In this document: piece after piece, positions 6,131 to 30,164 of the stretch
Layout: every line of letters starts with the position of its first letter
Numbering within the stretch: the stretch's first letter is position 1
DNA from: Welwitschia mirabilis
Lineage: Eukaryota
DNA: 31,290 bases
Direction: 5' to 3'
NCBI GenBank assembly: GCA_051453625.1
Contig: JBOZIK010000001.1
Coordinates: 47,071,378-47,102,667, forward strand
The notes under the pieces: model-generated
Database searches by the model: none
What the model was told of the DNA's origin: nothing
Seen by the model: only the letters and a program-made list of their open reading frames with translations
Made by a program: the position numbers and the translations under genes

Positions 6131-6639
6131 CATTAAGCATATTTTTTTCTTATTAAACTTATCTTGTGCATTTATAAATGTTATAAAATGATTATTATAA
6201 AATCTTACACTCGTATTCTAAAGTTTGTATCATGCCTTATCATAAATTAGAAGTTAGATTTTACAAAATTATAATATATTTTTAGTTTGTTTAAGCATAC
6301 CTAACCACATTAAATATTTTTACTAATTAATATTCATTATTATCAATTTATCAAAACATAAATAAAATTTAATTTACATGAATTACTTAATAATTATATC
6401 ACTTCTTATGTGAAAAGTGAAAAATTAATATTTTTAAGTTAACACTATAATTTTTTTGAAAAAAGTATGCATATTAAACTAGAAAATGAACATCGAGGTG
6501 GAAAATGCCAGGGAATAATAGGAAAACTGAACTGTTCATAAAAGGGAAGTAGTCTACTAGTTGGTAAAGAGAGACTTGAGTAACAAACCAAAATGGGGGC
6601 GAAACCGTTCCTCGATGACATAGTCACAGGAATCTGCCT

Positions 6640-8050
6640 ATCTAGTATCACAAAACACATGTAGAAAATAGACAAAAGGAAACATAGAACTATTAACAAA
6701 CAGGGGAAAAATGGCCCCTTGAGATCAGAAGTAACAGAAAACTTAGTTTTATAGGGAAATAGACATGAATGGGGAGGATTACAGTCCTCTACAAAATGGG
6801 AATGTGTTCCCATGGTTATGTTCAAGGAGAAATCTACCTAGATCATCTGAGAGGAATTTAAATGCTTGATTTATCTCCTTAAATTCTTTAGCACTTACTG
6901 GATTTTTGTCTGAGTGAAGACGAAGAGCTTTCTTCCTGTAGTTTGATTTTATGGCCTAGGATAGGGTTATGTGTAAGAGCTCCAATGTGATGAAGGGGCA
7001 CATCTTCAACCCCTGAATGGTTGCTAGCAACACCTCTTGTCTAGTTGCATTTATGTCAATGTCTTTTTGAGGTTGATGTTATATTTCCACTGATGAAGAA
7101 TTAGAAGTAGAGCTCTAAGCAGAGCTAGGACCTGAGGTTGGAGTAGGGGAGGGTTGAGCATACCTACCTTGCTCCTAAGAATTGGGTGACGGTTGAGTTT
7201 GAGCTGGCTCCTGGGCTGTGTTGGAAAGGTGTTTTTCAGGTGTCTTCTATTGGGATGGGGATGAAGACGATTCCCCTGAATGACTTGGGGACAAAGGCAC
7301 CCCCTTTTTGCTGGGGCTGGCTTGCACAACAGTTTTCTCTAGAATAGGGTTCCTATCAGAAGAGGTTCTTCTTGTAGAGATTCTCCTAGGGAAAGTCTTA
7401 TGAGGATGATGACAGGGTTGGGAGGAGGGGATTCTCTCTTACCCTAGCTTCTTGTGCTACTCTCCAAAGAGCTAGGATTAATCCTGAGTACCTTAAGAAA
7501 TCCTTTCATTTAAGAACTTGAATGAAAAATAATGGCAGATTTACGTGATGTTCCAAGTCAAGAGCTTTAAGGAAAGCAAAATGACTATCTGAAAGCTTGG
7601 AGAAATTCTTTAATTGAATGAAGTAATGGTCTAGGATTTCTACACCTAGTCCCCAAGGGGGTGGTAATGCCTTCCTGCTGATGTGTCCGCTAGACAATTT
7701 AGGAAGCTTACAAGGGAAGAAATGGAGAGCTTCATGTTGCCCTCTACTTACAAACGGAATCCGCTTGCCTTTTGCGAGGATCTCTAATAGCCTGGAGAAG
7801 AAGTCTTCAGAGATTTCTATTGAAGTTCTTTATAGTGGTGCATCCTCCTCTCCATCGCCTTTAGAAGGGTGCAATATCAGTCCCCTTGTCTCATCTCAAC
7901 TTATGCAAAAGGGATTTCCACTCCACTACCTGTATTTTCTCCTATAGAGTAGGGCATCCTTCGAAGAGGCCTAGATTAGAAGGCTCAATAGTTGGAGTTG
8001 CTCCCATTACAATTTTGATTTGGAAATAAAGGTGAATAATCCTCCTTGCT
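6640..8050 (-). pseudogene. LINE copy A extra coding region (ORF3 or ORF2 extension): transposon-accessory domain + S/P linker + J-domain + hydrophobic tail
   Basis: IEISEDFFSRLLEILAKG...GHISRKALPPPWG...HFAFLKALDLEHHVNLPLFFIQVLK...SGLILAL, then an S/P/Q-rich linker, then KSNYRKKALRLHSDKNPVSAKEFKEINQAFKFLSDD. Codon-wise conserved with copy B. Confidence 0.8.
6821..7000 (-). pseudogene. DnaJ/Hsp40 J-domain coding segment in LINE copy A
   Basis: CPFITLELLHITLS*AI/KSNYRKKALRLHSDKNPVSAKEFKEINQAFKFLSDDLGRF matches the J-domain consensus (Y.vLG....as..eIKkAYRklAl.lHPDKNp....e.FkeIneAyevLSD). HSD at 6908-6916. Confidence 0.88.
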
Positions 8051-9855
8051 CTATATCTAGAAAAGGGTAGGGGGCATTATTGAAAATCAGATTTTTTCTG
8101 ATCCACTAAATCTTCCAAAAAGTTAGGTGGATCCCATCCAATAAATGCATGTCAGGGGTGTTACAGGTGTGGAAGTACTTTATCATTATGGAGATTAATT
8201 CCTTGCTCCAAACGCATTGATGAAAAAGATGTTGTATCGGTTCTGGATTAGACTGGCAGATGGGACAGTTAGGGTCTACTTGAAATCCCCTTTTGAGTAA
8301 TTAGTCTCTTATTAAAATTCTTTGATGGTCTTTTAGTTAACAAAAAACCTTATTTTTTTTTTTTTTTGGGAATCTGTCCCTTCCAATACTTCTTATAACC
8401 ATCCTGTTTTCCATACTTCTTTATAAGAATCTGCTTGGTTGAATTAGTCTGATAAATGTTCAAGTCTATGAGTTGTTAGAGAGCTTTGCTGAGATGCTTT
8501 CTTAAATAGGACTCCTCATGATCAATTATCTAATCTCTATATTTGTAGTTAATCAAATCGCACCAGGGTTGACCTCCTTCTTACAGTCTCTTTAGGATTC
8601 TATTTGTTCTAGTGACTATACAGCCTTCGGGTTTTTGAATCCCCCAACCTTCTGATTTCTTTGGGTGAGCAATAATCTTCCATTTACAGAAATGAATTTG
8701 GTGGTGATCCTTTTCTTTTGATCAAATAAAGTCATTTAAGATCCTGTTGATTTTTTATATGATATGTATTAAGGAGCGATAATGAAAGCTATGTACTGAA
8801 AGGATGAGATTAGATAGGAGTTTGTGAGAATAATTTTAGCCTTCAAGGAGAGAAAGTTATTTTGCTAGGAGTTGCACTGCATTTGAATGGATTCCAATAT
8901 GTAATTCCAGGTATTTGTCTTGTGCCAATTTCAAAGAGGGATACCTAGGTAAATATCTTGTAGGTCTTTTAACTTTATACTCAGGATTCAGGTGATTTCA
9001 CCTCATCTGATACATTTTCTATCCAAAGTGTGTATTCTTGATTTATTCTAATTAGTGTAAAGCCCTGTTGCCTCTGCAAAGATGTTCATGGAATTTTTAA
9101 TTACTTTTGTTTACTAACATAAAGGCCTGGTCATGATCATGGTATCATCTGCATAGTTATTGTTGAGAAAGGTTTGGCCTCCAATTCTAATTCTTGTAAC
9201 TTCATTCCTTCTTAAGAAAATCTATAATGAATTCATTATAAACAGAAAAAGGTATGGGAATTGGGGGTCCCCTTGTCTCAAATCTCTTCCTACTGAGAAG
9301 AAATTTGATCTATGATTATTGACCTTCAACTAAATTTAGCGGAAGCCTGCATGTCTAGCCAGAGATTAATAATATCTTGAGAGAAGCCTGTTTTTCTAAG
9401 AATACACTCTAAAGCTTGCCAACTAACAGAATTGTAAGCTTTAGCAATATCTAGTTTAGCAATAAGGAGAGGGAATTTGTATTTTTTAACAGAGTGAATG
9501 ATCTCATGAGTCAAGAGGATTTGGTCTTGGATATACCTGGATTGGATGAAGCCGGCTTGGTTCTCTGAAATCACATTGGGAAGCAGGGGGGCGATTCGGC
9601 CAACCATGATCTTTGCAAAAATTCTGTAAATGACGTTACAAACATCTAAAGGCCTAAAATCCTCTGGTTTGCTAGCATCCCTTTTTTTCGGTATGAGTAC
9701 CACTCTAGTTCTGTTCATTTTCCTAGGGATCCGTCTGTTGTGAAAGACTTCCTGCATTGCATCATGGAGGTTATCCCTTAGGATGGAGAAGTGGGATTTA
9801 AAAAGTTTGACTGGCCAACCATTAGGGCCAGGGGCTCTATTATTCTTCATGGATC
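8007..9855 (-). pseudogene. LINE copy A ORF2 fragment: reverse transcriptase + C-terminal zinc finger (zf-RVT type)
   Basis: DLRQGDPQFPYLF, NNYADDT, YLGIP, KRGFQVDPNCPICQSNPEPIQHLFHQC, FWKI*WIRKNLIFNN; multiple stops and frameshifts. Confidence 0.92.
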
Positions 9856-9955
9856 NNNNNNNNNNNNNNNNNNNNNNNNNNNNNNNNNNNNNNNNNNNNN
9901 NNNNNNNNNNNNNNNNNNNNNNNNNNNNNNNNNNNNNNNNNNNNNNNNNNNNNNN
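9856..9955. other. Assembly gap (others at 2921-2930, 10899-10908, 12917-13016, 27138-27364)
   Basis: N runs; true lengths unknown. Confidence 0.99.
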
Positions 9956-9959
9956 AATA

Positions 9960-12650
9960 TGATATGTTTAGCTTTCTTTCTTTCCAAATTTCATTAGGGG
10001 TTTTATCCATACTTACTCTTAGATAAACTTTATTGATAATGTAGCATGCAGTACTTACTGCTTCAGTCTAAAAAGTTTTAGGTACTTCCTTATCATTTAG
10101 CATCATTCTTATCATCTCTTGAAGGACTCAGATTTTCCTTTATATAATTCCATTTTGTTTTGGAGTTTTTGGGGCTAAAAAATAATGTTCTATACCATTG
10201 TCCACATAATATTTCTCAAAAAGATGATTTTCAAATTCTCCTTCATGATCGCTTAAATCTTTTTAATAGTGTATCCCTTTTTATTTTGGATTCTGTTATA
10301 GATTTCAACATAATGTTTGAAGGTTTCAGATTTATTTCATAAGAAAGAAATTCAAGTAAATCTAGAAACGTCGTCCACTATAGTCAAAACATGTCATTTT
10401 TCTCCTATACTTTTAGTTTTGGTTGGACCCGCTAAGTCCATGTGAATGAGTTCAAGTGGCATTGTTGAAGAGACCAAGTTTTTACTTTTATGAAAGGTCC
10501 TGACTTGTTTTTCTTTTTGATAAGCATCGCATAACTCATGCATATCAATATTGATCTTAGGGATTTTTTTCACAATCTTCTTTTTAATGATGATTTTAAG
10601 ATGGTCATAGTTTACATGTCCTAACTATTAGTACCATAATTCTTCTTGATTTATATGATAAAAATAACAAGCAAACAAAGATTAATCAATACTATAAATG
10701 TTGTTTATTCTATTTGGTTTAAGAAGAATATCATTTGTTTTACTATATCTAACTTCACATTTTTTACTATCAAAAATAATTGTATGACCTTTATTACCAA
10801 TCTGACTAGTACTCAGTAACTTATGTTTAAGAACATTCATATATAAAACTTCATTAATTTTAAGCATGTTACCTCCACCATGCTTTAAGTGCCTTCTANN
10901 NNNNNNNNCTTTGAAAGTTACTTATCTTTATCAAAATCGTCCAAATGTTGGAATCTTAATTTATCATCTATCATGAGCTAAGAACATCCATTATCCATGT
11001 GCCAGTAACTTCTATTTGATAATTTAAAAGCGATTTAAATCAGTAAACTTTTCAAATTATCATCCCTTGCTTACTTAGTTCTTGTAGACTATTGTAGTAT
11101 ACATTTCCTTAGGATAGATTTAAATGGAAAATTACTAATAAAGTTTGCAAAGGCGTCATATTTCTAAAATTACAAAATAATTTTGAATGACATGTCTTTT
11201 CAAACAAATGACACATAATCTTTAGCATAGAGTTATTTTGCCAAATTACCTTATCCAACTAATTTTGTGGTTTTTGAGAGATAAAACTAATAAATTTTTT
11301 GTCATGAATTGATCTTCATATTCCAAGATTTTTTTCTAATTTACTTGAACTATTATAAAATTTATTTACAAAATGAGGTAAGCTTTTTACCTCTTGAGAT
11401 AGTTTGGTTTTTTCTGTTTGAACCATCTTTTATGTTCCCTCTAACTCTTCCTTTTCCTTGTTTAGGGCCTTTACTATCTTTTTTAACTCATTGGTCTGTT
11501 TTACCAGCTTTTCACATATAGAATAGAGATCTTAATAAGTATCTTCTATCTCTTTTTAACCTTCTTCAATAGGGTCTAAATCATCTAGTTCAGTTGAACA
11601 TGATATGTTTTTCATGGGAAGGATTATTGCCATGAAAGAAAGTTTTCTATCTCCATTTGATTCTTGACTTGAGCTATTGTCTTCTTCTTCATTTACATTA
11701 TTTTAGATGGTGATGAAGGATGATGTCCTGAATTTCATTTGATCTTTTCTATTATATGCACATTCATTTACAACATGTCCATATCCCTTACACGCATAGC
11801 ATTGGATCACCTTTTTGTTTTTTGAATCTCTTCTTTGCTTGGACTGATTCCTCCTTAGTTCCTTCCTTGGTTCACCATCTTTCTTTCTTCTGTATAAGAA
11901 TTTTTTAAATCTTCTTATTAATAGATCAACTTCATCTTTACTAATGTCTTTATCTGACTTTGCAAATCTAGACTCTTTCTACATACTTTTAATGTAAGAC
12001 TTTTCTTTTTATCTTTAGGAAACTTTAACTCATAAGTTTGAAGATTACCTCATAGTCCTTTTAGTATCATTTGATTGATGTTTTTATTTTCTTCTATAGT
12101 TATGACCTTTGGTTCAAATTGTTTTAGAAGAAATCTTAGTACTTTTCATACTAACTTTTCTTCATTCATTGTCTTGCCTAGACTTGTTATAGAGTTTACT
12201 ATGTTTATTAGCCTAATACAGAATTCTTGCAGAATCTCTTCTTCTTTCATGCAAATATTTTTAAACTTAGAAATAAGCATTTGTAGCTTTGCTTATTTTA
12301 CAATGGATGTTCCTTTGTGTGCAATTTCAAGTATATTTTAAGCTTTCTTGACAAGTTAGCAGTTTAGATCCTTTTGAATTCATCTGCACAAACTACACAA
12401 AAAATAACGTTAAGAGCACAGGTATGGTTGTTTTGACTTTGTCAGTAGGATTCTATTAGTCTCGATATCTTTTAAAAACTAGGTAATTCTGTTACTATTA
12501 ATTTTAATTAGTGTAGAAATAGATAACCTCCTTTATGTCTACATCTAAACATCTAAGAAAGATTCTCATTTAGACATTCTAGTAAGCATGGTTAGTTCCA
12601 TCAAATATGGATGATCTTCTAGTAGAGATTCCATCAGTAGGATTACTCAT
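9960..12650 (-). pseudogene. Decayed copia gag-pol (gag, CCHC knuckle, protease, GAG-pre-integrase, integrase core)
   Basis: MSNPTDGISTRRSSIFDGTNHAY*NV*MRIFL at 12650; CYACKGYGHVVNEC 11760-11801; WHMDNGCS*LM (cf. WYLDSGCSRHM) ~10970-11005; ELWY**LGHVN; LELIHMDLAGP..TIVDDVSRFT; APKTPKQNGI. Confidence 0.9.
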
Positions 12651-12702
12651 GGTTGGGGTTCAGGAGCCAAAATCTATTAGGATATACAACTAACTCAACT
12701 AG

Positions 12703-12714
12703 GCTTTGATACCA
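12703..12714 (-). promoter_or_regulatory. Primer-binding site (tRNA-iMet) of the copia element
   Basis: Minus strand tggtatcaaagc (consensus tggtatcagagc), 2 nt after the LTR end ...aaca. Confidence 0.85.
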
Positions 12715-12716
12715 AA

Positions 12717-13970
12717 TGTTGAATCTAGAATCTTAGAGGAGGGGGTTGATAGGATTAAAAAAAATTGAAATACTATCTCCATAAAATATTAAACACTAGA
12801 AAATATTTTTGCATATAAAATAATCAAATGATCTATCTAAGAATGAGATTTGAAAAGAAAAATAACTAAAACTAGAAACTATTGATGGAGATCATCAAGC
12901 GTACAATTTATAGTAGNNNNNNNNNNNNNNNNNNNNNNNNNNNNNNNNNNNNNNNNNNNNNNNNNNNNNNNNNNNNNNNNNNNNNNNNNNNNNNNNNNNN
13001 NNNNNNNNNNNNNNNNAGTAGTTTGAAAATTTTCCTACTCCACTCTCAATAGTCAGCTTCTACCCAAGGCTAATTTAGATCCTTGTTAGTTACTTTCTAA
13101 TTTTCTTAAGTTTACCTATAACCTTTATACTCAAACTTTTTAAGGCTCGGTCTTAACCTTTATAGAGAAATACTTTTTAGTATCAATAGTGTGCCAAGGT
13201 GTACAAATTTTACTAGATCTAAAGTATAGCAAAGATAGTGCTACACTGTCTAAGAACGATGTCATAGATCTAAGTATGTATAGTGTGATCTATTTAACTA
13301 AAGAACTAACAGTAAAAAGAATGCATTTTTTTTATTTTGATTAGCCGAAAATCCCTTTTCATGATTTTATTTGGTTTATATAAAGGACATATTTTAGGGT
13401 TTTACAAGTGAATCTAATATTCTAATAGATGAAAATAAGGAGAAAATGGCTAGAAAATAGGATGAGAAATTTCATTTCCACCATGACCAGTCGACCTCTT
13501 GAAACATCTAAATCACCCTATTGAGTGCTGTCAGTGAAGTCGGTCGACTCCATCTTCTTTTGGTCGACTTGAGTTCTTTACATCACCTAGTCCTGTTGAC
13601 TCTATCCAGGATCCAATCAATTACATATATCTAGGTATAGTTGACTCCATTTTTGTCTCGTTGATCCCTTATAAGTATGATGCAACATGATGCAACATTT
13701 TTAGCATAGGTTTGGTTGACTCCTTAGGAGTCTGGTTAACTCCTTAGTAAACTGGATATGATCATTTTTAGTACAGTTCTGATCAATCCCTACAGGATCT
13801 GATCAACCCCTTAATTAATCTATTACTTATCAAGTACAAGCGTAGCTAGTGAGAAATGTTAGGTTACTTCTGACCTACAAGAATTATAATTTTCTACAAG
13901 AAATGCAACATATTTTGCTATACTAGAAAATATTAGTCTGATATCAACTTGGCAAAAATATAACTTAATA
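12717..13970 (-). repeat. 5' LTR of the copia element (outer boundary uncertain)
   Basis: Ends in CA next to the PBS; tatataaa TATA near 13376-13383; palindromic repeat cluster 13486-13812. The outer end is inferred as a TG>TA-mutated start near 13970. Contains a 100-N gap. Confidence 0.6.
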
Positions 13971-14465: not shown

Positions 14466-14843
14466 TTAAATCATCTTGATAAAAAATATATTTATGCTAT
14501 ACATCGTCAATTAATCCATAAAGCTCAAGCTAAGTTTAAGCATGATAAAAAGTTACTTTATAAAAAGTTTGGACCTGGTCAATTTGTCCTTGCATACAAC
14601 ACTAGAGTACATCTTGTGAATAATAAGTTGACCTATAAATTATTAGGTCCTTATGTTATAGAGAGAGTTCATTTTAATGACTCTGTTGAGATTTCCAACC
14701 TAGAAACTAAGGAGATTCAGAAAGTTAATAGATAACGATTGCAACTATATAAAAAATCTTTCGATGTAACTATGAAAATAGTAGAAGCACTTATTTTGGA
14801 GGTTTACCTCGATGAGGAGGACTTTCACCTTGTTATTGTTTGA
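14466..14843 (+). pseudogene. Athila-like Ty3 integrase C-terminal fragment (old host element)
   Basis: LNHLDKKYIYAIHRQLIHKAQAKFKHDK / KFGPGQFVLAYNTRVHLVNNKLTYKLLGPYVIERVHFNDSVEISNLETKEIQKVNR*RLQLY (cf. LNELDE..YKAKTK..HDK..F.PGQKVLLYNSRL..FPGKL.SRW.GPF....P.GAVEI.....FKVNGQRLK.Y). Confidence 0.85.
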
Positions 14844-15686
14844 ATTCTTTCTAGCTTAATCCTTTGGTAGATGTTATGATGTTATTTGATCATCTTTTAA
14901 ACTCAACTTATATGTTACTTTATAAAGTTTTCTATTACTATTATTCATACTTGGACATTTTATAGTGATAAAATTAGCTTCACCCCATCTTGAGACATTT
15001 CCATGTCTATGGACTTCACTTTAAAGGAAGATGCCTTAGTTCTTGTGTTTTTTAATGGTGTAAAGTCTTTTATTATTTGGAAGTATTCTTTTCTTTCTTT
15101 TATTTCATTTATTCACCTTCATCTTTTTGAGTGTAAGATCGTGTAGAAGTTTTTAAAGAAAAAAAAAAGAGGAAAAAAGAAAAATAAAAAGAAATAATAA
15201 CCATGATTTATTATATTTTGTGATTAAAACAAAAATACATGGTCATCATGATGTCCTATCACACTAGGGTAAATTTTTCTGAGAGGGACCTTTAGCAATG
15301 TTGATAGGTATGAAAACTCCACCAGGGGATTATTTGGTCATGCTTCATGGGTCCTTACTTCTCTGAATATGGTTGCACTTCCCTCATTATGGAAAATTTG
15401 TAATAAACTTTAAGGCTATGAGATCAGTGGTGTTCCTAGTGTCATTAGAGCTATTGCTTATTTCCTAGACTCTTAGTATTCCCACATTATCATTTCACTT
15501 TTAGGGATTTGGGTGTGTTTGTGAGGTATGAGAAAGTGAGTTTATTTTTGAGTAGCTTTTGATCTTATCATTTATTGTTCTAAGCACTTGAGTTTTGGTA
15601 TCATCATAATCACTGCCCTTTCGAGTGGAACTTTATGAAGTTTATACATTTTATTATGCATTTTTACTTAGGTGGCTTTATGATGT
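14844..15686 (+). mobile_element. 3' non-coding region of the old Athila-like host element (continues at 30165)
   Basis: ~14970-15680 is homologous to ~27690-28290 (e.g. taaaggaagatgc; catggtca..atgatgtcctac; tgggtccttacttctctga..atggttgcacttccctcat). Sequence after 30170 matches 28300 onward (gtttgctaggttagaattta.gataggta). Confidence 0.8.
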
Positions 15687-16803
15687 TGATGCCTTGCCAA
15701 ATTGTATGTATTCATTTGGGTGTTATGAGCTATTTTATAGGACTTTTATAAAGGTTAGATGCAATTCTGGGGATTTTAAAGAGTTGATGAATGATCACTG
15801 AAATATGCATTTCTTGGCACATTTAAAGGAATTTCAGGTACTTTCTGATGCTTACTTCTTTGAAAGAAGATCACTAATGCTAGAGCTAATTTCTCTTGAG
15901 TTGGAAAGCTAAATAAGATTGTCATTTCCACTATTGTCCCCATGAGAGATAAGATGATAGACCCGCACATGTTAAAATAAGATGTTGACTAGAATGGAGC
16001 TGGAACCAATGAAAGCCTTTTTTCTAAGGGTGTCATCCTCCATTTCATCCCCATGACATGAAGGATGACATATCATAATATATGAATCATCATCCCCTTG
16101 GTTATCTCCACGATAGGCAGGACAACACTTGTAATTGCTAGTCAACCTTTGTCTATTTCATTCATTTATTTCTTATAATTGAAGGCATTTTGCAGTGCCT
16201 TTTATGTGATGGTTTCACTTCTTAGCCCTATAAATAAGACTCCTCTTCGAATCTCCTTTCCATCTTCATTTACACTAGACAGTCTCATGACAGGAGATAA
16301 AAGAGATAAAGATCCATCTCGCAAGTTGCAGAAAGACATTTCCTTGGTAAAGAGTAGCACATTCTCCATTGAGGCTTAGCTATTTTGTAAACTAAATTAT
16401 GGTTCTACTTAACATAAAAGTCTATTTTATTTTTGCATTCAATTCTTTTATATTTCCATTATGATTTATGCTATCCTTAATCTGGTGATAGTTTCATTAA
16501 TGATGTAGGTCTTAAGGGCAATCTTTGTTAAGGCTAAAGAAAGTAGTTTTAGATTTATTTTTCATTGCATTTAGATTTAGTTGCACTTTCATTGCATTGC
16601 ATATTTATTTCCTATTCTATTTTTAAGTTTTAGTTACTATATTATATTTGAAAATTAATTCTCATTCTTCTCTCATAAGTCTTCATTGGCTTATGACATT
16701 TGGGTCGCTCCCATTCATACTAGAGTGTGTATCTTGCAATCTATATATTTTGATTAATAGGATTGAAGTAAGAAATGAAGTTGTAAAAATATGTACTACA
16801 ACA
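15687..16803 (+). repeat. 5' LTR (1117 bp)
   Basis: tgatgccttgccaaattgtatgta...tatgtactacaaca; TATA ctataaataag ~16228; homologous to 18782-19899 and 29056-30164. Confidence 0.92.
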
Positions 16804-17935: not shown

Positions 17936-18781
17936 AAAATAATGTTGAGAGTAGGGATTGGTTCAATTCCTCTTTTTAACCATCTTATTATCCCACTTCT
18001 TTATTTCAAGCTTCATATAAAAATGATAATGGAAATTTTTCACATTTTAGGGATTCCACCTCATTTAGATAAACTTCTTACGATCCTTTCTTTCAATCCC
18101 ATCCATCTCCCATTACTTACCATGAAGAAGGACCATCTCTCATTAACTACTATAAGGAATACAATGATCCAATAAAAGAAATAATTGAAAAAAATAAATA
18201 AAAACTAAGAAAATATCAATAAAAGCCTAGAAAATACCGATAACAAACTAGAAAGTTTAATTAAGATCCTTTAACAAACACTATTACAAAATATAGGTTA
18301 TTTTGTAGTACAACAACCTCAAATCTATCCTTCTACATCCTATCTTAAGAAAAATGAGGATAATTTAGAAACAAATAATAATGATTATTGATTTCAAAAA
18401 GAAGATGTAATTTTAGATCAAACTTCAACATCTTACTCATTAGGAGATGAGTAAAGGAAAGACAACAATAACTCAACTAAATCTTTCAACAATAGGTATG
18501 AGGATGACCATTCATTAAATGATGATATTGAGGTATTAGATTATATCCTTAGCATCCATTGACTATGAGAAATCTAGATGAAGAATCCACTCATGAAAAA
18601 TCTGAAAATTCTTTAATCTGTAATAGGCATAATGATCACATTTCTTATTCATGCAATAAGATGATGAGAATGGTAAAAAAGGAGATGATGATGACATTGA
18701 AATATTAGATCATCCCTAGTTTTTACTTACTTTATAAGAATGAAGGAGTTCCACTTGTGAGAGAAGTTCAACTTATAAGAT

Positions 18782-19899
18782 TGATGCGTTGCCAAATTGT
18801 ATGTATTTTATGAGGTGTTATGAGCTATTTTGCAAGACTTTTATATAGGTTTAGATTCAAATTTAACAATTTTGGAGAGTTAATGAATGATCACTAAAAT
18901 ATGTAATTCTTAGCATATTTATAGGCATTTCAGGTATTTTTTTATGCTCACTGCTTTGGAAGAAGCTCACTAATGCTACAGCTAATTTCTCTTAAGTTGG
19001 AAAGCTAAGTAGGATTGTCATCCCTACTGTTGTCCCCACGAAAGCTAGGATGATAGCCCCGCACATGCCAAAATATGATGCTGACTGGATTGGAGCTAGA
19101 ACCAATGGAAGCCTCTTTTCTAAGGATGTCATCCCCATGATCGTCCCCATAACATGAAGGATAATAAACCATAATGTATGTACCATTTTCCCTATGATTT
19201 TTCCCAAGATGAGTAGCATGATACTTGTAAGCACTAGCCAACCTTTATCCATTTTATTCATTTCTTTCTTGTAATTGAGTGCATTTTACAATGCCTTTTA
19301 TGTAATGGTTTCACTTCTTAGCCTTATAAATAAGACCCCCTTCAACTCTTTTATCCATCTTCTTTGGCACCAAATATTCTCGTGATAGGAGATCAAAGGA
19401 CAGAAAATTCATCTCATAAGTTGCAGAAAGTCATTTCCTTGATGAAGGATTGTGCATCCTTCATTGAGGCTTGTCTATTTTGTAACCAAGATGCTAATTC
19501 TAATTTAATAAAAAACTCTATTATAATTATGCATTTAGTTTTATTATATTTTATTTATGGTTTATGTTGTTCTTGATCCAATAACATTTTCATTGATGAT
19601 ATAGGTCTTAAGGGCAGCCTTTGTTAAAGTTGAAGAAACTAGTTTTAGATTTATTTTGCATTGCATTTAGATTTAGTTGCACTCACATTGAATTACATCC
19701 TTATTTCCTATACTATTCTTAAGTTTTAGTTATCATATTTTCTTTGGAAATTAATCCTCATTCTTCTCTCTTAAGTCTTCAATAGGTTACAACATTTGAT
19801 CACTCCCATTCATACTAGAGTATGTATCTTGCAATCTATATATTTTGACCAAAAAAATTTTGAGTAAGACGTGAAGTTGCAAAAATATGCACTACAACA
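18782..19899 (+). mobile_element. Solo LTR of the same family, 5-bp TSD AAGAT
   Basis: tgatgcgttgccaaattg...gcactacaaca; aagat at 18777-18781 and 19900-19904; no adjacent PBS or PPT. Confidence 0.93.
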
Positions 19900-20241
19900 A
19901 AGATTAATAGAGAATTTAAGTATTGAGACAAAATTAATAAAGAAGAGTTAAGTTAGTAACAATAATTCAATAACCGAAAATAAGGATTACAGTTTGGAAT
20001 TAATAAGATTATTCAACAGAGAGGAAGAAGAGTCAGCTTAGGAATTATCAAAAAATCTTCCATCATATAATGAAGATAATGAAAAATTTCCTTTCTATAA
20101 TCTTATTAATGATCTTTTTGAGGAATTTTTTTTTTTTGAAAAAAGTATATATATTAAACTAGGAACTGTACATCAGGGGGAAAAACTGCCTAAGGGTAAC
20201 AGTAGAACTAAACTATTCATAACAGTGAATTAAACTACTAG

Positions 20242-21750
20242 TTAGTAAAGGAGAACTAAACAATAGCCAAAAATAGGTGATATTGGCCCTTGATAATAAA
20301 GTAACAAGAAACTGCCTATCGGGATGCAAACACTAGCATAAATGGACAAAATAAAACTTAAAACTGCTAAAAGACAAGGGCGAAAATGCCTCTTAAAACT
20401 AGAACTTACAGAGACCTTAGAGTTAGATGGGAGAAGCCAAGAAGAGAAAGGATATAGTCCTTTACAAAAAGGAAACATATTATCATGGTTGTGTTCGAGG
20501 AGGAATTTGCTTAGATCGTCTGAAAGGACTTCAAAACTTGATTTATTTCTTTAAATTCTTCAACACCTATAGGATTTTTATCTAGAGGAAGATGAAGAGA
20601 TTTCTTTTTGTAAGTTGACTTTATGGCCTAGGATAGAGCTTAGTGAGAGAGACCCATGGTAATAAATGGACACCTTTTCAACCCTTGAATCATTACCAAT
20701 AGGACTTTCTGTCTGGCTGCATTCATATTAAGATCTTCCTAAGGTTGATATAGAACTTCCACTGACGATGAGTCAGAAGTGAAGCTCTGAGGAGAGCTAG
20801 GGCCAAAAGTAGGAGAAGAAGAGGGTTGAGCATGCCCACCTTGTTCCTAAGGGGGAGAAGGATGAGCTAGAGATGGTTCTTGGACTAGGCTAAGAGGATG
20901 CTTCTTGAGAGTCTTCTGATGGGTCAGAAGTGAAGATGGTCCCTCTGGGTGACTTGGGGGTAAAGACAATTCCTCTAAATGACCTGGGGGTGAAGACACT
21001 CACCTCTTACTAGGGCTAAATTGAGCTTCTTTTTTCTTAGAAGTAGGATTCCTCATAGAGGAGGAACTTCTAATAGATGATCTCCTAGGGGATCCGGTAA
21101 GAACAGTGATGGGGAGGAGGGGAAGGGGTCTCTCTAGCCCGAGCTTCTTGTGCTGCTCTCCGTAGGGCCAATATTAATCTTGAGTGCCTTGAGGATTCCT
21201 TGTGTTTGAGAACTTGAATGAAAAAATAAGGTAGAGTCACCTAGTGACCTAAGTCAAGAGCTTTAAGAAATGCGAAATGGATACCTGATAGTTTAGAACA
21301 ATTTCCTGATTGAATGAAATATTGGTCCACAAGTTCTTCCCAAGTCCCTAAGGGCAGTAACGCCTTCCTACTAATGTATCCACTGGGTAGTTTGGGAACT
21401 CCACCAAAAAAGAAATCAAAAGCTTCTTATTAACCTCTACTTCTAAATGGGATACTCTCACCTTCTACTAGGATCTCCAACAGTCTAAAGAAAGATTCTT
21501 CAGAAATTTCTATTGGAATTCTTCTAAAAGTAGTTCACCCGCCTCTTCATTGCCTATAAAAGGGGGGCGATATCAGCCCTCATATCTCCTCTCAGCTTTT
21601 GTAAAAGGGGTCCCCAACCCACTGCCTATATTTTTTTCCACAGAGCTGGGCATTCCTCGAAGAGATATGGGTCTACAGGCTCAAAAGTTAGAGTGGCTTC
21701 CATGGCTATTTTAATTTGAAAATGAGTGCAGATAATCTTCCTTGCTGTAT
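20242..21750 (-). pseudogene. LINE B extra coding region (ORF3 or ORF2 extension): transposon-accessory domain + S/P linker + J-domain + hydrophobic tail
   Basis: MEATLTFEPVDPYLFEECPALWKKI*AVGWGPLLQKLRGD...IPIEISEESFFRLLEILVEGE...GYISRKALLP...QYFIQSGNCSKLSGIHFAFLKALDLGH*VTLPYFFIQVLKHKESSRHSRLILAL; S/P linker; J-domain; PCLLAVLSFILSIY. Confidence 0.82.
20494..20672 (-). pseudogene. DnaJ/Hsp40 J-domain coding segment in LINE copy B
   Basis: CPFITMGLSH*ALS*AIKSTYKKKSLHLPLDKNPIGVEEFKEINQ/FEVLSDDLSKF; PLD at 20580-20588 occupies the HPD position. Confidence 0.85.
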
Positions 21751-24700
21751 ATATAGGGAAGGGTGGGGGCATTATTAAAAATTAGATTATTTTTGATTCA
21801 CCATATCTGCCAGAAATTCAGGTTAATCCCATCCAATAAATGCATGTCAGGGGTGCTACAGGTTTGATAGTACTTTGTCATTATGACAATTAATTTCTTA
21901 CTCTAAACGCATCGATGGAAAAGATGCTATATTGTTTCTGGATTAGATTAATAGATGAGACAGTTAAGATCAACTTGAAATCCCCTTTTTGATACTTGAT
22001 CTCTTTTCAAAATCCGATGATGTTCTTTTAGCAAACAGAAAACTTTAATTTTTTTTGGTATTTATCCCCTCCAATATTTCTTGTAACCATCTTATTTGCC
22101 ATACTTCTTGATAAGAATTTATTTCGATGTTTTAATCTGAGAAATGTTCAATTCAGTAAGTTATTGGTGAGCTTTACAAAGATGCTTCCTTACATATGAC
22201 ACCCCTGATCAATAGTCTAGTTTCTATACTTATGATTAATTCAGTTACACTATGGTTGCCCTCCCTCTTGTCATCTCTTTAGGATCCTATGAGCTTCAGT
22301 GAGAATACAATATTTGGGTTTTTGAATCCCCCAACCTCCTGATTCTTTAGGACATGTAATAATGTTTTATTTACAAAGATGTATTTGGTTATGGTCTTTC
22401 CCTCCTAACCAAATGAATCCTGTCAATTTTTTATATTAAATTCTTCAGAAAGGTGATAATGAAAGCTAAATACTAGAAAGATGAGATTAAATAAAAATTT
22501 TTGAGAATGATTTTAGCCTTTGAAGAAAGAAAGTTATTGTGCTAGCAGTTGTACCTCCTTTGGATAGATTCCAAAATGTAATTCCAGATACTAGTTTTGT
22601 GCCAATTTCATAAAGGAATACCTAGGTAGATGTCTTGAAGGTCTTCTAACTTTGTGTTTATGATTAGATTGATTTCGCCTCTTTTGATACATTATCTACT
22701 CAATGTGTGTATTCTTTATTTGTTCCAATTAGTGTGAAGTCTAGTTGCCTCTGCAAATGTAGTCATGGCAATTTTTTATAGCTTTTGCTTGCTAACAGGT
22801 TACCTTGGTGATGATGATGGTATCATCCATGTAGTGATTAATGAGAAATGTTTGACCTCTAATCTTAATTTCTATAACTCCATTATTTCTTAAGAAAACC
22901 TGTAGAAAATTCATCACAAACAGAAAAAGGTATGGGGATAGGGGATCTCCTTGTCTCAAACCTCTTCCCACTGAGAATAAGTTTGATATATGGTTATTGA
23001 CATCCACACTAAATTTAGCAGAAACCTGCATGTCTAACCATAGATTAATAATATCTTGAAATAAGTCGATTTTCCTAAGAATGCACCTTAAAACTTACTA
23101 ACTAACAGAGTTATAAGCTTTAGCAATATCTAATTTAACAATGAAAAGCAGAAATTTATATTTTTGACAGAATGAATAATCTCATAAGTTAAAAGGATTT
23201 GGTCTTGGATATACCTAGAACGAATGAAACCGACTTAGTTCTCTAAAATCACGTTGGGAAGCAAGGGGACAATTCGGCTAATCATAATTTTTATAAAGAT
23301 TCTGTAAATGACATTATAGACCCCGAAGGGTCTAAAGTCCTTTGGTCTACTAGCATTCCCTTTTTTTCAATATGAAAACCACTCTAGTTCTATTCATTTC
23401 TCTAGTAATCCGTCTATTGTGAAATATTTCTTGCATTGCATCATAGAGGTTATCCCCCAGGAGAGAGAAGTATGATTTGAATAGTTCGACTGGCCATCCA
23501 TCAGGACTAGGTGCTTGGTTATTCTTCATCGATGTGACTACAGTTAAAATCTCTTCTCTACTTAGGGGTTTAATCAGCATGTGATTATTCTCCTTTAAAA
23601 GTTTTTTGTTTTCTAAAATTAGGCTAGGGGCGATATCATCCCACTTCCATATTCTCTAAAGATGGACCTGCAGTTCCTTAGCTATTTTCTTTTCATTTTC
23701 TGTGACTTGATGTCCTACTATAATTTTTCTGATTTTATTATCCGATCTATGCTGGTTGGTCTGCTGGAAGAAGAATCTAGTGTATCTATGACCCTCTATA
23801 AGCCACTTAATCCTTGAGCGTTCCCTCCAATAGTGTTCTTTATCCTCATGTATTTCTTAGAGATCCATTAGGCATTAATATTTTTTACTTCAAAAACTGT
23901 CTTGATTACCTCCCTCCTCCTACTTAGCTTAAATGCATTTGAGTTCCTTCTTAAGTTCAGTTTTTAAGTCAAAACTCTTCTTATCTTTCTTTCTCTAATC
24001 TCTTATGTGAGCCTTCAAAGTATTGATGCCTCTGTATAAGAAGGTAATAGATTGGATACCATCATAATGTGCCTAGATCTTTTTTAATAGCACTCTAGTT
24101 TCTGTCTAGTTGATTTAATATTGTTCCATATGAAATGGGGTTTTGGGGGGTGAAAATGCCCCTAGTCTAAGCATGATGAGACGGTGATCCGAGGCAACCC
24201 TGTTCAGACCATGGGCTTCAAGTAAAAGTTTATCTAGATCCTTCCTAGCCAGTACTCTATCAATCTTAGACATTATCAGCTCTATACTTGCTCTTTTGTT
24301 TGACCACATGTATTTGCATCTAGTGATGGGGACGTTTGTGAGAAAGTATCTTACTAAAAAGTCTTTTAGGATTGAAGCCCCTCTAGAGTTCCAGTTGTCA
24401 CCACCTGATTTTTTCTAGTGGTGGAGGTATTATTTAAAGTCTCTCAATATTAGCCATTTAGATTTATCTACTATAGTCTTCTGTGCTTCTTCTAAGACCA
24501 CGGCCTTATCTAGATTATACTGTAGGCTGTAGATATTTGTAACGGTCCATCCTTCATTCTTAAGGAAAATCATAATATGATTCTAACTGCTGCAAATCAG
24601 ATCTACCTCTTCTTTAGTAGAAACCAGAAGGCCACCAGAATTACCTTGGGCCACAACAGAAAAAGATGTCCATTGCTGCCTCAAATTCATATTTCCAATT

Positions 24701-24825
24701 TCATTTTTTATCTTCATTTTCTATAAGCAAACTAAATCAATATTATTTTGACTAATCAGATTTCATAGGGTTTTTTTATTTTAGGAGGACCCTAATCCCT
24801 TGCAATTCCATGAGAGACAATTCAT
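21706..24825 (-). pseudogene. LINE B ORF2 (APE endonuclease, reverse transcriptase, zinc finger); no RNase H
   Basis: MNCLSWNCKGLG at 24825; AQGNSGGLL; WLILRDFK (GDFN); SKIDRVL; ASDHRLI; QAPSPDGW; GRGLRQGDPLSPYLF; HYMDDT 22822-22833; YLGIP; HLFHRC; FWQIW*IKNNLIFNN. Confidence 0.95.
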
Positions 24826-25918
24826 TGGGGGAGTTTTCACCTCTTTTTGGGTGCTTGTCCTTTTTCTAATGTGTCTTCGATAGTAGCTTAAGAAATATTT
24901 GTGATGTTCTCTGCTATTCTGCGTTCACGTAAGGCTCTGTTACTAGGCCTTTCCTTCATCTAGATTTCCACATCATTGGATTCTTCGTCGTATAGGGTTT
25001 ATTGGGTATCATTCTCATTCACGACAGGTTGAAGTGGATTCTTCTATTTGATAACTTTCTTTTTCTTGCTTTCCTTTGGAAAAACAGTGGTTCTTTTTCT
25101 AGTTTATTCCTTCTGTTGCTTATGTCAGCATATGATCTAATTATGACCAGTCTTCCCATAAAAAGTATAGGTTTCTTTTTGCTTTTCTTTGATGTAAATC
25201 AGTCTTTTCCAGCATTCTTCACGAAGATGATCCAATCTTCTATAATGTGAGCATTTCTTCTTGGGAGGAGTACATCTTCTAGAGGGGTGTCCTGATTTTT
25301 CACAGATTGTACAAGAAGGATCAGGAGGTTCTTATATGTAACATCTAGATCATAGTTTCCTCATTTGGATCTAAACTTTATGGATTAGTGCTCTTTAGCA
25401 TCCTTAAGGCTCATCCACACATAAAATCTGGCTAATACTAATCTTATCTAGTTAATAGTGATTCAATTGAGTTTGATCAGATCTCTAAATTGACATGTCA
25501 TTTTCTTTAATAAATATTCATACTAGAACTCTAGAGGAAACTTGTGGATGCAGATATAGATCAGGAATTTCTTAAATAGATTCAGATCCGATTGTGTTTC
25601 CAGCGTCCATTTGGCTAAGGCAAGACCTCTGACTCCAAAAAACCATAGTCCTCTTGTGATTATTTCATCTTGATCTTGTTCATTGTTTAGTTGGAATAAA
25701 ACTAGCCCTTCTAGCATTACAATAATGTCAATCTTACTGACTCCTATCCATTTCATAACGACCTATTCATGGATCCAATCCAACCGAGGTCAAGGACCAA
25801 AAGAGACAAACTTGTCAATGAGGCTGAATCTAAACTTCTTCTTGATTTCACTGCACTCGTCTTCATCGATGTCTAATACAAGGGATTTCCCTTTCCTAGA
25901 AAACTGTGTCTTCTCCAT
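24822..25918 (-). pseudogene. LINE B ORF1 (DUF4283/RRM-like domain + CCHC knuckle)
   Basis: RGLWFFGVRGLALAKW..FLIYICIHKFPLEF* (DUF4283-type GPW..L.L.KW..VWV...LPLE.W); ARFYVWM; CTICEKSGHPSRRC 25272-25313. Start ATG 25918 is tentative. Confidence 0.85.
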
Positions 25919-28900
25919 CTTGGGGATAAACCCCTCAAGAAAATCCTAAAAGCTAATCAAAACTGCAAAACGAATAACTCCCGTAACTTACCTGATGAAT
26001 TCTGTCCTGTAGCCGAAAATGCCCTTCTACTCCATGATTAGGAACTGAAACTGCCCCCACCGATCTGTGATCTTTCAAGACCTGCATCCTCCTGTACTCT
26101 AGATCTACTAGAACCTCTCAAAGCCTTAGAACCCTAGCAGTGATAATTCAAATGTTTAATCTTTTTGAGGAATTTACCAACTTAGAAAAAAAATAATCCT
26201 CAACAAAATAATAAAGAATAGCAATATATAATCAATGTTATTGATAAAGATAATGAAGAAGAGGGAGATATGATCATAGAGCATAATGACAAAAGTGAAA
26301 AGATAATTCAACCAAGTAATGATGAAGTCAACAAGGAAAAGGAGAGGAATAAAAAAGAATCAATTAAAAATCAAATAAACTTAATGAAGAATAGACTTAT
26401 ACCTTTCAATGAAACAGACCAACTTAAAGAGTCTCTACATGTTTCTCTATCTTTTTAACTTATATTTCCATGCAGAACCTCAAAAGATATCCATCTTTTT
26501 ACTTTTAATTCTACATTACCTTATGATATTGATAATGATAACCTCTCTCTTTAGCCCTTTTTAATATTTAAGTAATTCTTCAAATCACATTCATGTCCTT
26601 AAATTTAATAAGACACATCACGTTGAGGACTCTACTCTAAAAATCTCTTAATCCTTTTCTTTTAAAACTTCATGTGCTACAAAAAGTAACATCTTTTCCT
26701 CTTTTGCAAAGACAAATCTGCCTTACACTTTTAATAACTACCCTTTTCAAAAATAATACTTGGAATATCTTAGAACTCTAAATTGAGGAAAACCTTATAT
26801 CTTGATCTAAATCCATGCTTAGAACTAAATGTTAAAGATTTTCTTAGGTATTTTAAACCTATCTTAATCACTCAACTTATAAAGTTTTTTTACAAATCCT
26901 TATATCCCAAATAATACCTCCCATGTTTAATATTAAGCTCTGAATGCAATTTATGTTTTAAATCCTTTATATCATGAGTTTAATAAGAGATTGTTTTTTC
27001 ATGAGTTATATGAACTTTGTATCTCTTGTTTTGCTGTTAAGTCTTGTGAAGATAAAATTTTATGTGGTCATGCTAATTGAAAAAAGTCTTATTTCTTTAT
27101 GAAAATTCATATCTTAAATTGAATGATAGAAAACTTCNNNNNNNNNNNNNNNNNNNNNNNNNNNNNNNNNNNNNNNNNNNNNNNNNNNNNNNNNNNNNNN
27201 NNNNNNNNNNNNNNNNNNNNNNNNNNNNNNNNNNNNNNNNNNNNNNNNNNNNNNNNNNNNNNNNNNNNNNNNNNNNNNNNNNNNNNNNNNNNNNNNNNNN
27301 NNNNNNNNNNNNNNNNNNNNNNNNNNNNNNNNNNNNNNNNNNNNNNNNNNNNNNNNNNNNNNNNCTTTGAGTACCTCCTCACCTGTCTTTTATAATGATA
27401 TTCATGATTTACATCATTTTAATAAGAGGTTGTTTGTTAATGACATTTATCACATTCATCTCTTATTTAAATTTTAAAAGTTGTGTTATCAAAGTTTTAT
27501 CACTCTACTCTCTCTTCCTCTAATTAATTTTACTCAAAAATGATTATATACCTTTTATGTTTTATCAATTAGTGAATTTTCTCTTAGCCTTTTCCTTTAG
27601 AGGCCATTATGATGTCACTTGATCATTTTCAAACATAACTTATGTATTTATTTCTATAACTAGTCTTTGATTTAGATATGTTACGGTGGTAACATTAGAT
27701 TCACCCAATCTTAATACATTCACATATCTATGAACTTCAGTCTAAAGGAAGATGCTTTATTTTTAATGTTTTTCTGAGTAATAAAAGGTCTTAGATTGTT
27801 TAAGGGTTTTCTTTTCTATTTTTTATCTTATTACTTCACCTTTGTCTTTTGGAGTGTTTTGGTTCTTTGTGGGGGAAAAACGTGAAATAAGACTATGATG
27901 TTTTATATTTGAGATAGTTCAAAAACATGGTCACTATGATGTCCTACTGTAAGTGCACCTAGGCAAATTTTTCCGAGAGGGATCTTTCATATTGTAATAT
28001 GTTAGCTATGAGAAATCTACAAGGGGGTCAATTGGCCATGCATCGTGGGTCCTTACTTCTCTGATTATGGTTGCACTTCCCTCATCATGAATAGTTAAAT
28101 AATAAAATAATAAAAACTTGGAGGCTATGGGATTAGTGGTGTTTCTGGTATCATCAGAGGCATTTCTTGTTTTCTAGACTCTTTAATCTTATTATTTAAA
28201 GCATTTAATTTTTAACATCATCATAACTGCTGCCTTATTGAATGAAATTTTTTATACATCAATTCATGCATTTTTAAATCAAGTAATGTTATAATTTCTA
28301 GTTTGCTAGGTTAGAATTTAGGATAGGTACGCTATCTTATTTATGTTGCCTTATGTCCATTCTTTTTGTTTTCTTTTGTTATTTAGTTAGTTATTTCAAA
28401 GTTATTTCTGTATTTTCTTATCATTTTAGGACCTTAACATTTAATAGTTTCTTTACCTATTTTTCAATAAAGAATACTTTTCTTGCTTAGATGAGTTTTC
28501 TTAATAGTTTTATGATATTTATTTTTAGTCTTTTGGAGTTCTAAATGTTGCTATTAATTATTTTTGTGATGGTGCATTTGTTGAGCATTCATGGATCTGC
28601 TTCATTGTAATTAGCACATTTTCATTGTCTACTCTTTCTATGCTTATTAGAATTATTTATACATCTTTATTGCTACACTTAGCTATGCACTTAATTCATC
28701 CATTGTCTAAATTCAAAAGCATCCATCATCTGCCTTTTCATTCTCGTCTGCTTTTTTCATTTTCTTCACTGATACAAGATGTATTGTTTTTCTTCGAGGA
28801 GGGTAGAACTCATCTTCATGTTTCATTTTCATATTTTTTTGAGTTATTTTAGAGCTTTCATAAGACATAATTTTTGAAATTCTCACTCCATACACGTGAT

Positions 28901-29055: not shown

Positions 29056-30164
29056 TGATGTATTATCAAATTGTATGTATTTGATGGGGTGTTATGAGCT
29101 ATTTTGCAGGAATTTTATACAAGTTTAGATGTAATTCTAAGAATTTTAGAGAGTTGATGGATGAGAACTAAAATACGTAATTCTTGGCATATTTAAAGGC
29201 ATTCCAGGCACTTTCTGATGCTCACTGCTTTAGAAGAAGATCACTAATGCTAAAGTTAATTTCTCTTGAGTTAGGAAGCTAAGGAAAACTGTGATCCTTA
29301 TGACAGATAGGATGATAGACTTGTACATGATAAAAGAGAATACTAACTAGATGGGAGCTAGGACCAATGAAAGCCTCTTTCCTAAGGGTGTCATCCCTTT
29401 CATGTCATCCCCATAACATGAAGGATTAAAAATCACAATGTATGAACCATCATTCCCTTGGTCATCTCCACGATAGTGAGGATGACACTTGTAACCACCA
29501 GTCGATCTTTGTTTGTTTCATTTATTTCTTTCTTATAATTTATCATGTTTTACAGTGCCTTTGGTGTAATGATTTAGTTTATTAGCTCTATAAATAAGAC
29601 CCCTCTTCGAATCTTCTCTCCATCTTCATTTATACTAGATAGCCTCATGATAGGAAATTAAAGGGCTAGAGATCCATCTTGTGAGTTACAGAAAGACGTT
29701 TCATTGGTGAAGGGCTGTGCATCCTTCATTAAGGCTTGGATATTTTATAACCTAGATGCTAGTTCTACTTAATATAAGACTCCATCTCATTTATGCATTC
29801 AATCCTATTATATTTTTCTTATGATTTATGTTGTCCTTGATTAGGTAACAGTTTCATTGACGATATAGGTCTTAAGAGCAGTTTTTGTTAAGCCTAAAGA
29901 AAGTAGTTTTAGATTTATTTTGCATTACATTTAGATTTAGTTACATTTGCATTGCATCTCATCTTTATTTCTTGCACTGTTCTTAAGTTTCGGTTACCAT
30001 ATTCCCTTCAAAAATCAATTCTCATTCTTCTCTCATAAGTCTTCAATAGGTTAAGAAATTTAGGTCACTTCCATTCATACTAGAATGTGTATTTTACAAT
30101 CTATATATTTTGACTAATAGAATTTGGAGTAATACATAAAGTTGCAAAAATACACACTACAACA
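29056..30164 (+). repeat. 3' LTR (1109 bp)
   Basis: tgatgtattatcaaattgtatgta...tacacactacaaca. Shares diagnostic segments with the 5' LTR (catcttcattta.actaga; atctccacgatag) that differ in the solo LTR. Confidence 0.92.

Follow-up and report, generated by a model that had tools for sequence, protein, structure and literature searches.

Why a stretch of Welwitschia mirabilis DNA should carry two decayed copies of a J-domain, each with a different lesion at the same motif, and to what kind of protein these copies once belonged, is the question raised by the window studied here (31,290 nt on the forward strand of contig JBOZIK010000001.1, assembly GCA_051453625.1, positions 47,071,378-47,102,667). 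A J-domain with its His-Pro-Asp motif (HPD) stimulates the ATPase of Hsp70 and passes on a client. The initial annotation of the window had claimed that the two copies, here called A and B, are independent of each other, that each lost HPD by a different C>T change in the proline codon, and that the domain was intact and under selection while its family was active. We consider it likely that the J-domain is the C-terminus of an additional, selected module in a high-copy long interspersed nuclear element (LINE) of the plant L1 type, and that HPD was intact while this family was active. The positions on which the argument begins are as follows.

6835..7000, minus strand: J-domain of copy A (Pfam match at 6842-6961; PDB matches dnj-12 and DNAJA1)
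6908..6916, minus strand: HPD position of copy A, CAC TCA GAC, read as HSD
20580..20588, minus strand: HPD position of copy B, CCT CTA GAT, read as PLD

In copy A the minus-strand frame that runs from stop to stop at 6955-6779 reads AIKSNYRKKALRLHSDKNPVSAKEFKEINQAFKFLSDDLGRFLLEHNHGNTFPFCRGL and includes the peptide KSNYRKKALRLHSDKNPVSAKEFKEINQAFKFLSDDLGR. An 86-aa read-through of 7039-6782, with stops written as X, matched the Pfam family DnaJ (PF00226) with E 4.3e-10 and 40.0 bits, and a second Pfam scan of the same domain gave 35 bits, the curated cut-off of the family being 27.8 bits. The nearest PDB matches were class A J-domains of equal loop length, namely dnj-12 (2och, E 7.1e-9) and DNAJA1 (2lo1, E 1.3e-7), to both of which the basic helix II (YRKKALRLH) and helix III (EFKEINQAFKFLSD) aligned without a gap. 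The J-domain of copy B lies at 20714-20455 on the minus strand, split into two tblastn pieces by a 1-nt gap. As the initial annotation had reported, the motif is spelled CAC TCA GAC (6916-6908) by copy A and CCT CTA GAT (20588-20580) by copy B, and all four of the synonymous flanking pairs it had listed (CCA/CCT, AAG/AAA, GAG/GAA and GAT/GAC) were found; the tripeptide HPD itself is present in neither window copy. Its account of a single, different C>T change per copy holds for the proline codon and falls short for copy B as a whole, since the passage from CAY to CCT in the histidine codon requires an A>C change and the motif of B thus carries two hits, not one. The donor of the domain was sought with HMMER against 1.84 billion representative sequences, which returned 29 matches at E <=1e-3, none of the 29 below 1e-10; all of them were generic J-proteins, the best at 48.8 bits, so that neither a donor nor a protein of the LINE family itself could be named.

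Both copies of the J-domain proved to lie within a larger repeat, of which the following parts were recognized.

6451..9855, minus strand: LINE copy A, 3' part, with Pfam RVT_1, zf-RVT and DnaJ; its 5' end is lost at the run of N at 9856-9955
9344..9694, minus strand: RVT_1 match in open reading frame 2 (ORF2) of copy A, E 8.4e-15, 55.5 bits
8199..8360, minus strand: zf-RVT match (PF13966) at the end of ORF2 of copy A, E 4.6e-9, 37.3 bits
6458-6778 with 6451-6457, minus strand: 3' untranslated region (UTR) and terminal A-run of copy A, with no coding signal in any frame
20126..26158, minus strand: LINE copy B, full length, 6033 bases, flanked by a 17-nt direct repeat

The repeat aligns 6451-9854 with 20131-23533 at 74.4% identity over 3453 columns and is collinear from the reverse transcriptase (RT) to the A-run. 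ORF2 of copy B likewise matched RVT_1 (E 8.6e-11) and zf-RVT (E 1.7e-10) in Pfam, and in both copies these two domains precede the J-domain in the same orientation. Copy B further carries a DUF4283 match in ORF1 (25418-25780, E 7.7e-12, Pfam) together with CCHC-like strings in the ORF1 translation, which we take to be knuckles, and a weak match to Exo_endo_phos at 24112-24921 (E 0.023, 14.9 bits against a cut-off of 24.5), where motifs seen by eye in ORF2 are presumably those of an endonuclease; an RNase H domain was not found in this LINE. Both copies belong to one plant L1-type LINE. The J-domain stands about 330 nt ahead of the poly(A) end, the 3' UTR measuring about 320 nt, and the element ends in A-runs at 6457-6451 (A) and 20137-20126 (B). 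Next to copy A, across the run of N at 9856-9955 and on its 5' side, the window holds at 9956-12916 on the minus strand a decayed piece of a Copia-type long terminal repeat (LTR) retrotransposon (Retrotran_gag_2 E 1.5e-7 and gag_pre-integrs E 1.5e-7, Pfam), which either interrupted copy A or has its junction with it concealed by the assembly gap.

It could be argued that A and B are the halves of a segmental duplication, or that the LINE inserted beside a repeated J-protein gene, so that the J-domain would be flanking host DNA; other repeats in the window are indeed roughly collinear (14841-15474 with 27573-28183, and 15687-16803 with 29056-30164). One member of this series, the repeat of 1.1 kb, occurs a third time at 18773-19899 and is hence itself dispersed, and the similarity between A and B stops exactly past the A-run instead of continuing into the flanks. 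No A-run separates ORF2 from the extra module, and the target-site duplication of copy B, a perfect 17-nt repeat (AAATTCCTCAAAAAGAT) at 26175-26159 and 20128-20112, encloses everything from ORF1 through the J-domain and the A-run, from which it follows that the J-domain belongs to the transposed unit. On this target-site duplication we rejected both the segmental duplication and the neighbouring gene, to which we gave next to no credence. Since the flanks diverge past the A-run and copy B has a target-site duplication of its own, A and B are independent retrotransposition events, and the independence asserted in the initial annotation is borne out.

Upstream of the J-domain a path of about 410 codons was traced from the frames, indels and stops in the alignment of A with B, leading from the end of ORF2 to the 3' UTR and composed of the following segments.

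6779..8007, minus strand: candidate ORF3 of copy A, about 410 codons, with terminal TAA at 6781-6779
20455..21703, minus strand: candidate ORF3 of copy B, in four frame pieces, its terminal stop struck by a 1-nt gap
8005..8009, minus strand: junction of the ORF2 stop and the ATG in copy A, TAA at 8009-8007 overlapping ATG at 8007-8005 (TAATG)
7434..7831, minus strand: N-terminal domain of ORF3, about 130 residues, constrained, orphan, predicted helical
7040..7433, minus strand: Ser/Pro-rich linker with weak or no residue constraint; lengths in A and B differ by 1+2, 30 and 3 nt
6782..6834, minus strand: conserved tail past the J-domain, 17 aa, FLLEHNHGNTFPFCRGL, ending at a stop common to A and B

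In copy A the path now lies in three frame pieces (8007-7833, 7829-7439 and 7438-6782). Stops in frame along it number 9 in 407 codons of A and 11 in 401 codons of B, against 25 and 33 in the off-frames of each copy; no frame-breaking indel is common to A and B, and the ancestral frame would, as we infer, have been unbroken. The indels between A and B in the linker net to multiples of three. In the 27 codons at 6862-6782, 20 of 27 residues are identical to those of B. The N-terminal domain matched no Pfam family, even at E 10, its best score in the ESM Atlas was 0.84, which is under the useful range, and AlphaFold2 run on the alignment of the A and B domains returned a mean predicted local distance difference test (pLDDT) of 39.8. 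As an observation on the linker border, A and B each carry a frame-breaking indel of their own in a C-rich poly-Pro tract (7395-7440; 21093-21132 in B), the two lying 38 nt from each other, and here the family contigs described below show, as loose ends at 7435, a long G-run on the plus strand; the tract is probably a hot spot of slippage.

Whether this module was a gene of its own depends on the junction, where the coding frame was judged from stop counts. In copy B the junction (21708-21701) reads TAG, two bases and ATG (21703-21701), so that both copies keep an ATG at the very end of ORF2, with the context GCCATGG in B; between 8068 and 7872 the ORF2 frame holds 4 (A) and 5 (B) stops, as non-coding sequence would, against 2 and 1 in the frame of the ATG, the numbers being small. 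The module may instead have been a C-terminal extension of ORF2, giving a polyprotein of endonuclease, RT, zf-RVT, N-terminal domain, linker and J-domain. The frames of zf-RVT and of the N-terminal domain are in fact identical in A and coincide in B after correction for its 1-nt gap at 8069, ORF2 ends with TAA in A and with TAG in B, in codons that are neighbours and not the same, so that neither stop need be ancestral, and 8068-7873 shows no selection signal in any of the three frames. We regard such an extension as rather unlikely, and the module as probably a separate ORF3.

Selection on the module was measured on the differences between A and B. The Nei-Gojobori dN/dS was about 0.13 for the RT frame, and off-frames ranged from 0.5 to 5; the J frame gave 0.17 (7180-6864) and 0.08 (6862-6781), and the N-terminal stretch at 7831-7434 gave 0.13-0.15. 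A permutation test, in which the sequence of A and the substitution spectrum were kept and the differences redistributed 20000 times, gave for the several segments the following counts of permutations with as few residue changes.

J-domain plus tail: 85 codons, 51 differing, 25 of them synonymous; 1 of 20000 permutations as low
span 7000-6821 of the initial annotation: 59 codons, 33 differing, 14 synonymous; 106 of 20000 as low
N-terminal domain: 126 codons, 77 differing, 34 synonymous; 0 of 20000 as low
Ser/Pro linker: 128 codons, 87 differing, 22 synonymous; 3119 of 20000 as low
first 45 codons past the ATG: 45 codons, 29 differing, 8 synonymous; 8934 of 20000 as low

In the J-domain plus tail the nucleotide differences were distributed 14/16/36 over the three codon positions, and 26 codons changed their residue where 38.8 +/- 3.0 were expected. 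The tail codons at 6862-6782 behaved alike (of 16 differing codons 9 were synonymous, a result matched by 28 of 5000 permutations). No synonymous signal was seen in the two off-frames over the J-domain or in any of the three frames of the 3' UTR; the signal ends at the stop common to both copies, TAA at 6781-6779 (struck in B by the 1-nt gap), and past there the indels do not come in threes. A synonymous excess in the J frame had been set beforehand as a test of the idea of selection, and it was found both in the narrower span of the initial annotation and, more sharply, in the J-domain with its tail.

These results bear directly on the reading in which the J-domain was a non-coding passenger, a piece of a host DnaJ mRNA or gene brought into the 3' UTR by 3' transduction or template switching and carried there without function. 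LINEs can pick up downstream sequence, the module follows ORF2 on its 3' side, stops abound in both copies, and for the rest of the module no homologue was found, all of which a passenger would show. It should nevertheless diverge neutrally, whereas the synonymous excess of the J frame is as strong as that of the RT; the indels upstream come in threes, the terminal stop is common to both copies with the signal vanishing past it, and a subfamily described below retains the residues through five synonymous changes. We therefore think a passenger very improbable and hold to a J-domain that was probably coding, as part of the module.

The state of the family beyond the two window copies was read from contigs of two DNA runs (X1 and X3, from two organisms) that aligned to 6451-8100 with a likeness of at least 80%. 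The two runs placed 8054 and 8190 contig pieces on the copy A stretch. RNA reads numbered 105 (X15) and 42 (X18), all of them less than 95% alike; they thus come from other copies and are no evidence on the silence of copy A. The variant figures given here are among the 41 listed of 680 variant rows, so that the absence of a row proves nothing. At 6913, the first base of the TCA of copy A on the minus strand, the plus strand reads G in 80% of the X1 depth (1025.5 of 1274, 82 contigs), in 89% of the X3 depth (1951.3 of 2193.7, 85 contigs) and in the RNA reads (6 of 7 in X15, 4 of 4 in X18). A G at this position makes the middle codon of the motif CCA, that is, proline; the family state at the motif had likewise been set beforehand as a test, and the proline codon was what the bulk of the contig depth in both runs carried.

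Loose ends of contigs at 6911/6912 (35+39 pieces in X1 and 42+37 in X3, agreement 0.73-0.78) revealed a subfamily that reads TAC AGG AAG AAA GCC CTA AGA CTA CAT C... on the minus strand and keeps the YRKKALRLH of copy A by means of five synonymous codon changes, CGT to AGA and CAT for histidine among them. A loose-end row that starts one base earlier has CTA, as in B, which implies that members of the family have repeatedly lost the proline through C>T at the CHG cytosine of CCA-G. Majority differences from A match B and restore typical J residues, as with Gly for Glu at 6981 (giving LGL in helix I), Val for Phe at 6856 and Gly for Ser at 6895; the differences carried by the RNA reads are mostly synonymous, among them those at 6836, 6839, 6841, 6848, 6890 and 6944. 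As far as could be seen, the family state at the motif would be HPD and the window copies its dead members, the support for the histidine and aspartate codons being limited to the two window copies and the loose contig ends. Together the synonymous excess and the proline codon of the family support the proposal of the initial annotation that the J-domain was selected while the family was active and decayed after insertion.

On the side of expression, both RNA runs were deepest over the J-domain (6836-6945 of the window), and nearly all X18 reads there carried G at 6836, A at 6841, G at 6890 and A at 6891, states found in 6-43% of the DNA depth, which points to transcription from a single minor variant or locus of the family. 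Among the sequence records listed as containing the stretch, none is annotated as RNA. Scans of metagenomes for more copies gave 593 matches to a protein pattern, none of them confirmed, and 8 loci matching a DNA pattern, all of them chance matches of about 23-32 nt.

How late the decay set in turns on two stops that A and B have in common.

6956-6958, minus strand: in-frame TAG common to A and B, within helix I/II of the J-domain
7175-7177, minus strand: second in-frame TAG common to A and B

These stops favour a history in which the module had once been coding but had died before A and B diverged, so that the selection signal would date from an older period and the large amplification would have carried a pseudogene. 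Both are TAG, and none of the listed variant rows (41 of 680) differs from A at either position. Against this history, the synonymous excess was measured on differences between A and B, which by definition arose after their common ancestor. Methylation-type decay offers another origin for the stops. From the A/B alignment the share of cytosines changed to T was estimated for each copy at about 0.56 in CG, 0.38 in CHG and 0.20 in CHH contexts, only 9 CG sites remain C in both copies, and about 18 CHG sites are expected to read T in both. In the module frame the codon pairs of A and B comprise 0 CAG/CAG, 3 CAG/TAG and 2 TAG/TAG, which, at the CHG rate just given, fits parallel decay. It is plausible, judged from these counts, that parallel CAG>TAG decay accounts for the common stops at least as well as ancestral origin does, and a module dead before A and B separated is in our judgement improbable.

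Several points weigh against a module that was selected and intact while the family was active. Were both common TAGs ancestral, A and B would have inherited an interrupted frame from their common ancestor, and none of the 41 listed variant rows spans 6956-6958 or 7175-7177; no intact copy of the module was seen, the full reading being limited to the two copies A and B. The first half of the J-domain of copy B scored 19.1 bits on Pfam DnaJ (E 0.0014), which is under the cut-off. About 58 codons from the ATG show no selection signal, and since neither they nor the linker do, it is by frames and stop counts that the ATG is linked to the J-domain. Word-indexed homologue searches among longer proteins or proteins of similar length found no relatives of the N-terminal domain, although the RT of the same element, taken as a positive control, was also blank at E 1e-10, so that blanks in these databases say little about plants. 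Recruitment of Hsp70, lastly, is read from the domain family only.

Taken with these reservations, the element runs from ORF1 (DUF4283 and CCHC knuckles) through ORF2 (endonuclease-like region, RT and zf-RVT) to a frame of about 410 codons, the 3' UTR and poly(A). The extra frame would begin with the ATG at the ORF2 stop and a weakly constrained start, followed by the orphan N-terminal domain, the Ser/Pro linker, a J-domain like those of classes A and B, and the tail. During the activity of the family this module would have been under purifying selection with a canonical His-Pro-Asp, and A and B would have decayed after their insertion, mainly by C>T at methylated cytosines, the proline codon being struck at a different C in each. 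Such a combination of a constrained orphan domain with a flexible linker and, at the C-terminus, a J-domain and its conserved tail is that of a targeting J-protein. In the mechanism that we propose, the J-domain would switch on host Hsp70 at the binding target of the N-terminal domain, likely targets being the ribonucleoprotein of the element itself or chromatin and silencing factors at the element, and the outcome would be help for the assembly, transport or expression of the LINE. We give about an even chance to a recruitment of Hsp70 by the element, whether to the ribonucleoprotein or to these chromatin and silencing factors, and an anti-silencing role is conceivable. Only tentatively, with somewhat less than an even chance, do we suggest that the third gene of this LINE is its own Hsp70 co-chaperone, with an orphan targeting domain joined to the HPD J-domain by a disordered linker, serving assembly or movement of the ribonucleoprotein or acting against the silencing of methylated transposons that in plants depends on J-proteins and Hsp70, and that it is the first transposon-encoded J-protein as far as our searches reach.

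The window as a whole consists of AT-rich eukaryotic DNA interrupted by assembly gaps. Three copies of the 1.1-kb repeat lie on the same strand (15678-16803, 18773-19899 and 29056-30164) with 79-81% mutual identity, accompanied by smaller pieces of related repeats (14841-15474 with 27573-28183, and 28301-28450 with 30181-30336), and tandem repeats occur in very AT-rich DNA at 1059-1236 (71 bp, 2.4 copies) and 1701-1913 (106 bp, 2.0 copies, 97% match). A 130-aa open frame at 6445-6837 on the minus strand, which overlies the J tail and the 3' UTR, was considered and rejected as a gene, with no selection signal and with 3 stops in B; stop-free in A, it looks like a by-product of T-rich composition.

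Set beside known systems, copy B agrees with the plant L1-clade LINEs in its ORF1, ORF2 and poly(A) end in the usual order, its 17-nt target-site duplication and its lack of LTRs, and it differs from them in the module of about 410 codons, ending in a J-domain, that follows the ORF2 stop and precedes the 3' UTR. For a LINE, ORF1 and ORF2 are usually considered sufficient; to our knowledge few have further conserved genes, each of which has been a sign of dependence on the host or of counter-defence. A selected J-domain in a LINE family of thousands of fragments would mean that the element depended on, or profited from, steering host Hsp70, and a role of chaperones in retrotransposition or in transposon silencing would thereby become directly testable in a plant. 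The two copies also offer a worked example of how decay at methylated CHG and CHH sites erases a catalytic motif differently in each copy while the family state stays recoverable from read data. Full-text literature searching found no published LINE or other transposon with a J-domain, and in the main text of a survey of L1 elements in 503 genomes, supplements aside, the terms 'DnaJ' and 'J domain' are absent (PMC5203782).

Among J-proteins, the nearest likeness is to classes A and B (Hsp40: DNAJA1, dnj-12, DNAJB1 and Sis1), with which the module has in common HxDKNP followed, after three residues, by EFKEINQAF.FLSD. Unlike theirs, its J-domain is C-terminal and not N-terminal, and the G/F region, zinc finger and client-binding C-terminal domain of those proteins are lacking, their place as partner being taken by the orphan domain. 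In plants, SILENZIO acts as a J-protein with MBD5/6 and HSP70 at methylated transposons, according to a review (PMC8616336), and a J-protein encoded by a transposon could plausibly interfere at that level; J-proteins of this kind are host genes and offer a functional lead for the LINE module, not a family to which it belongs. Closest among LINEs that acquired a C-terminal domain are the insect R1 elements, reported to carry an added superfamily 1 (SF1) helicase domain (PMC4686597), where a LINE lineage likewise kept a foreign domain at the 3' end of the coding region; the domain there is a helicase, is fused to ORF2 and occurs in insect hosts. A genomic parasite with a HPD J-domain of its own is in turn the point of likeness to the polyomavirus T antigens, the sequence kinship being limited to the domain family. 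In these multifunctional proteins of DNA viruses the HPD J-domain is N-terminal and exploits host Hsp70, and if our reading is true, the module of this LINE would be the retrotransposon counterpart of the T-antigen J-domain.

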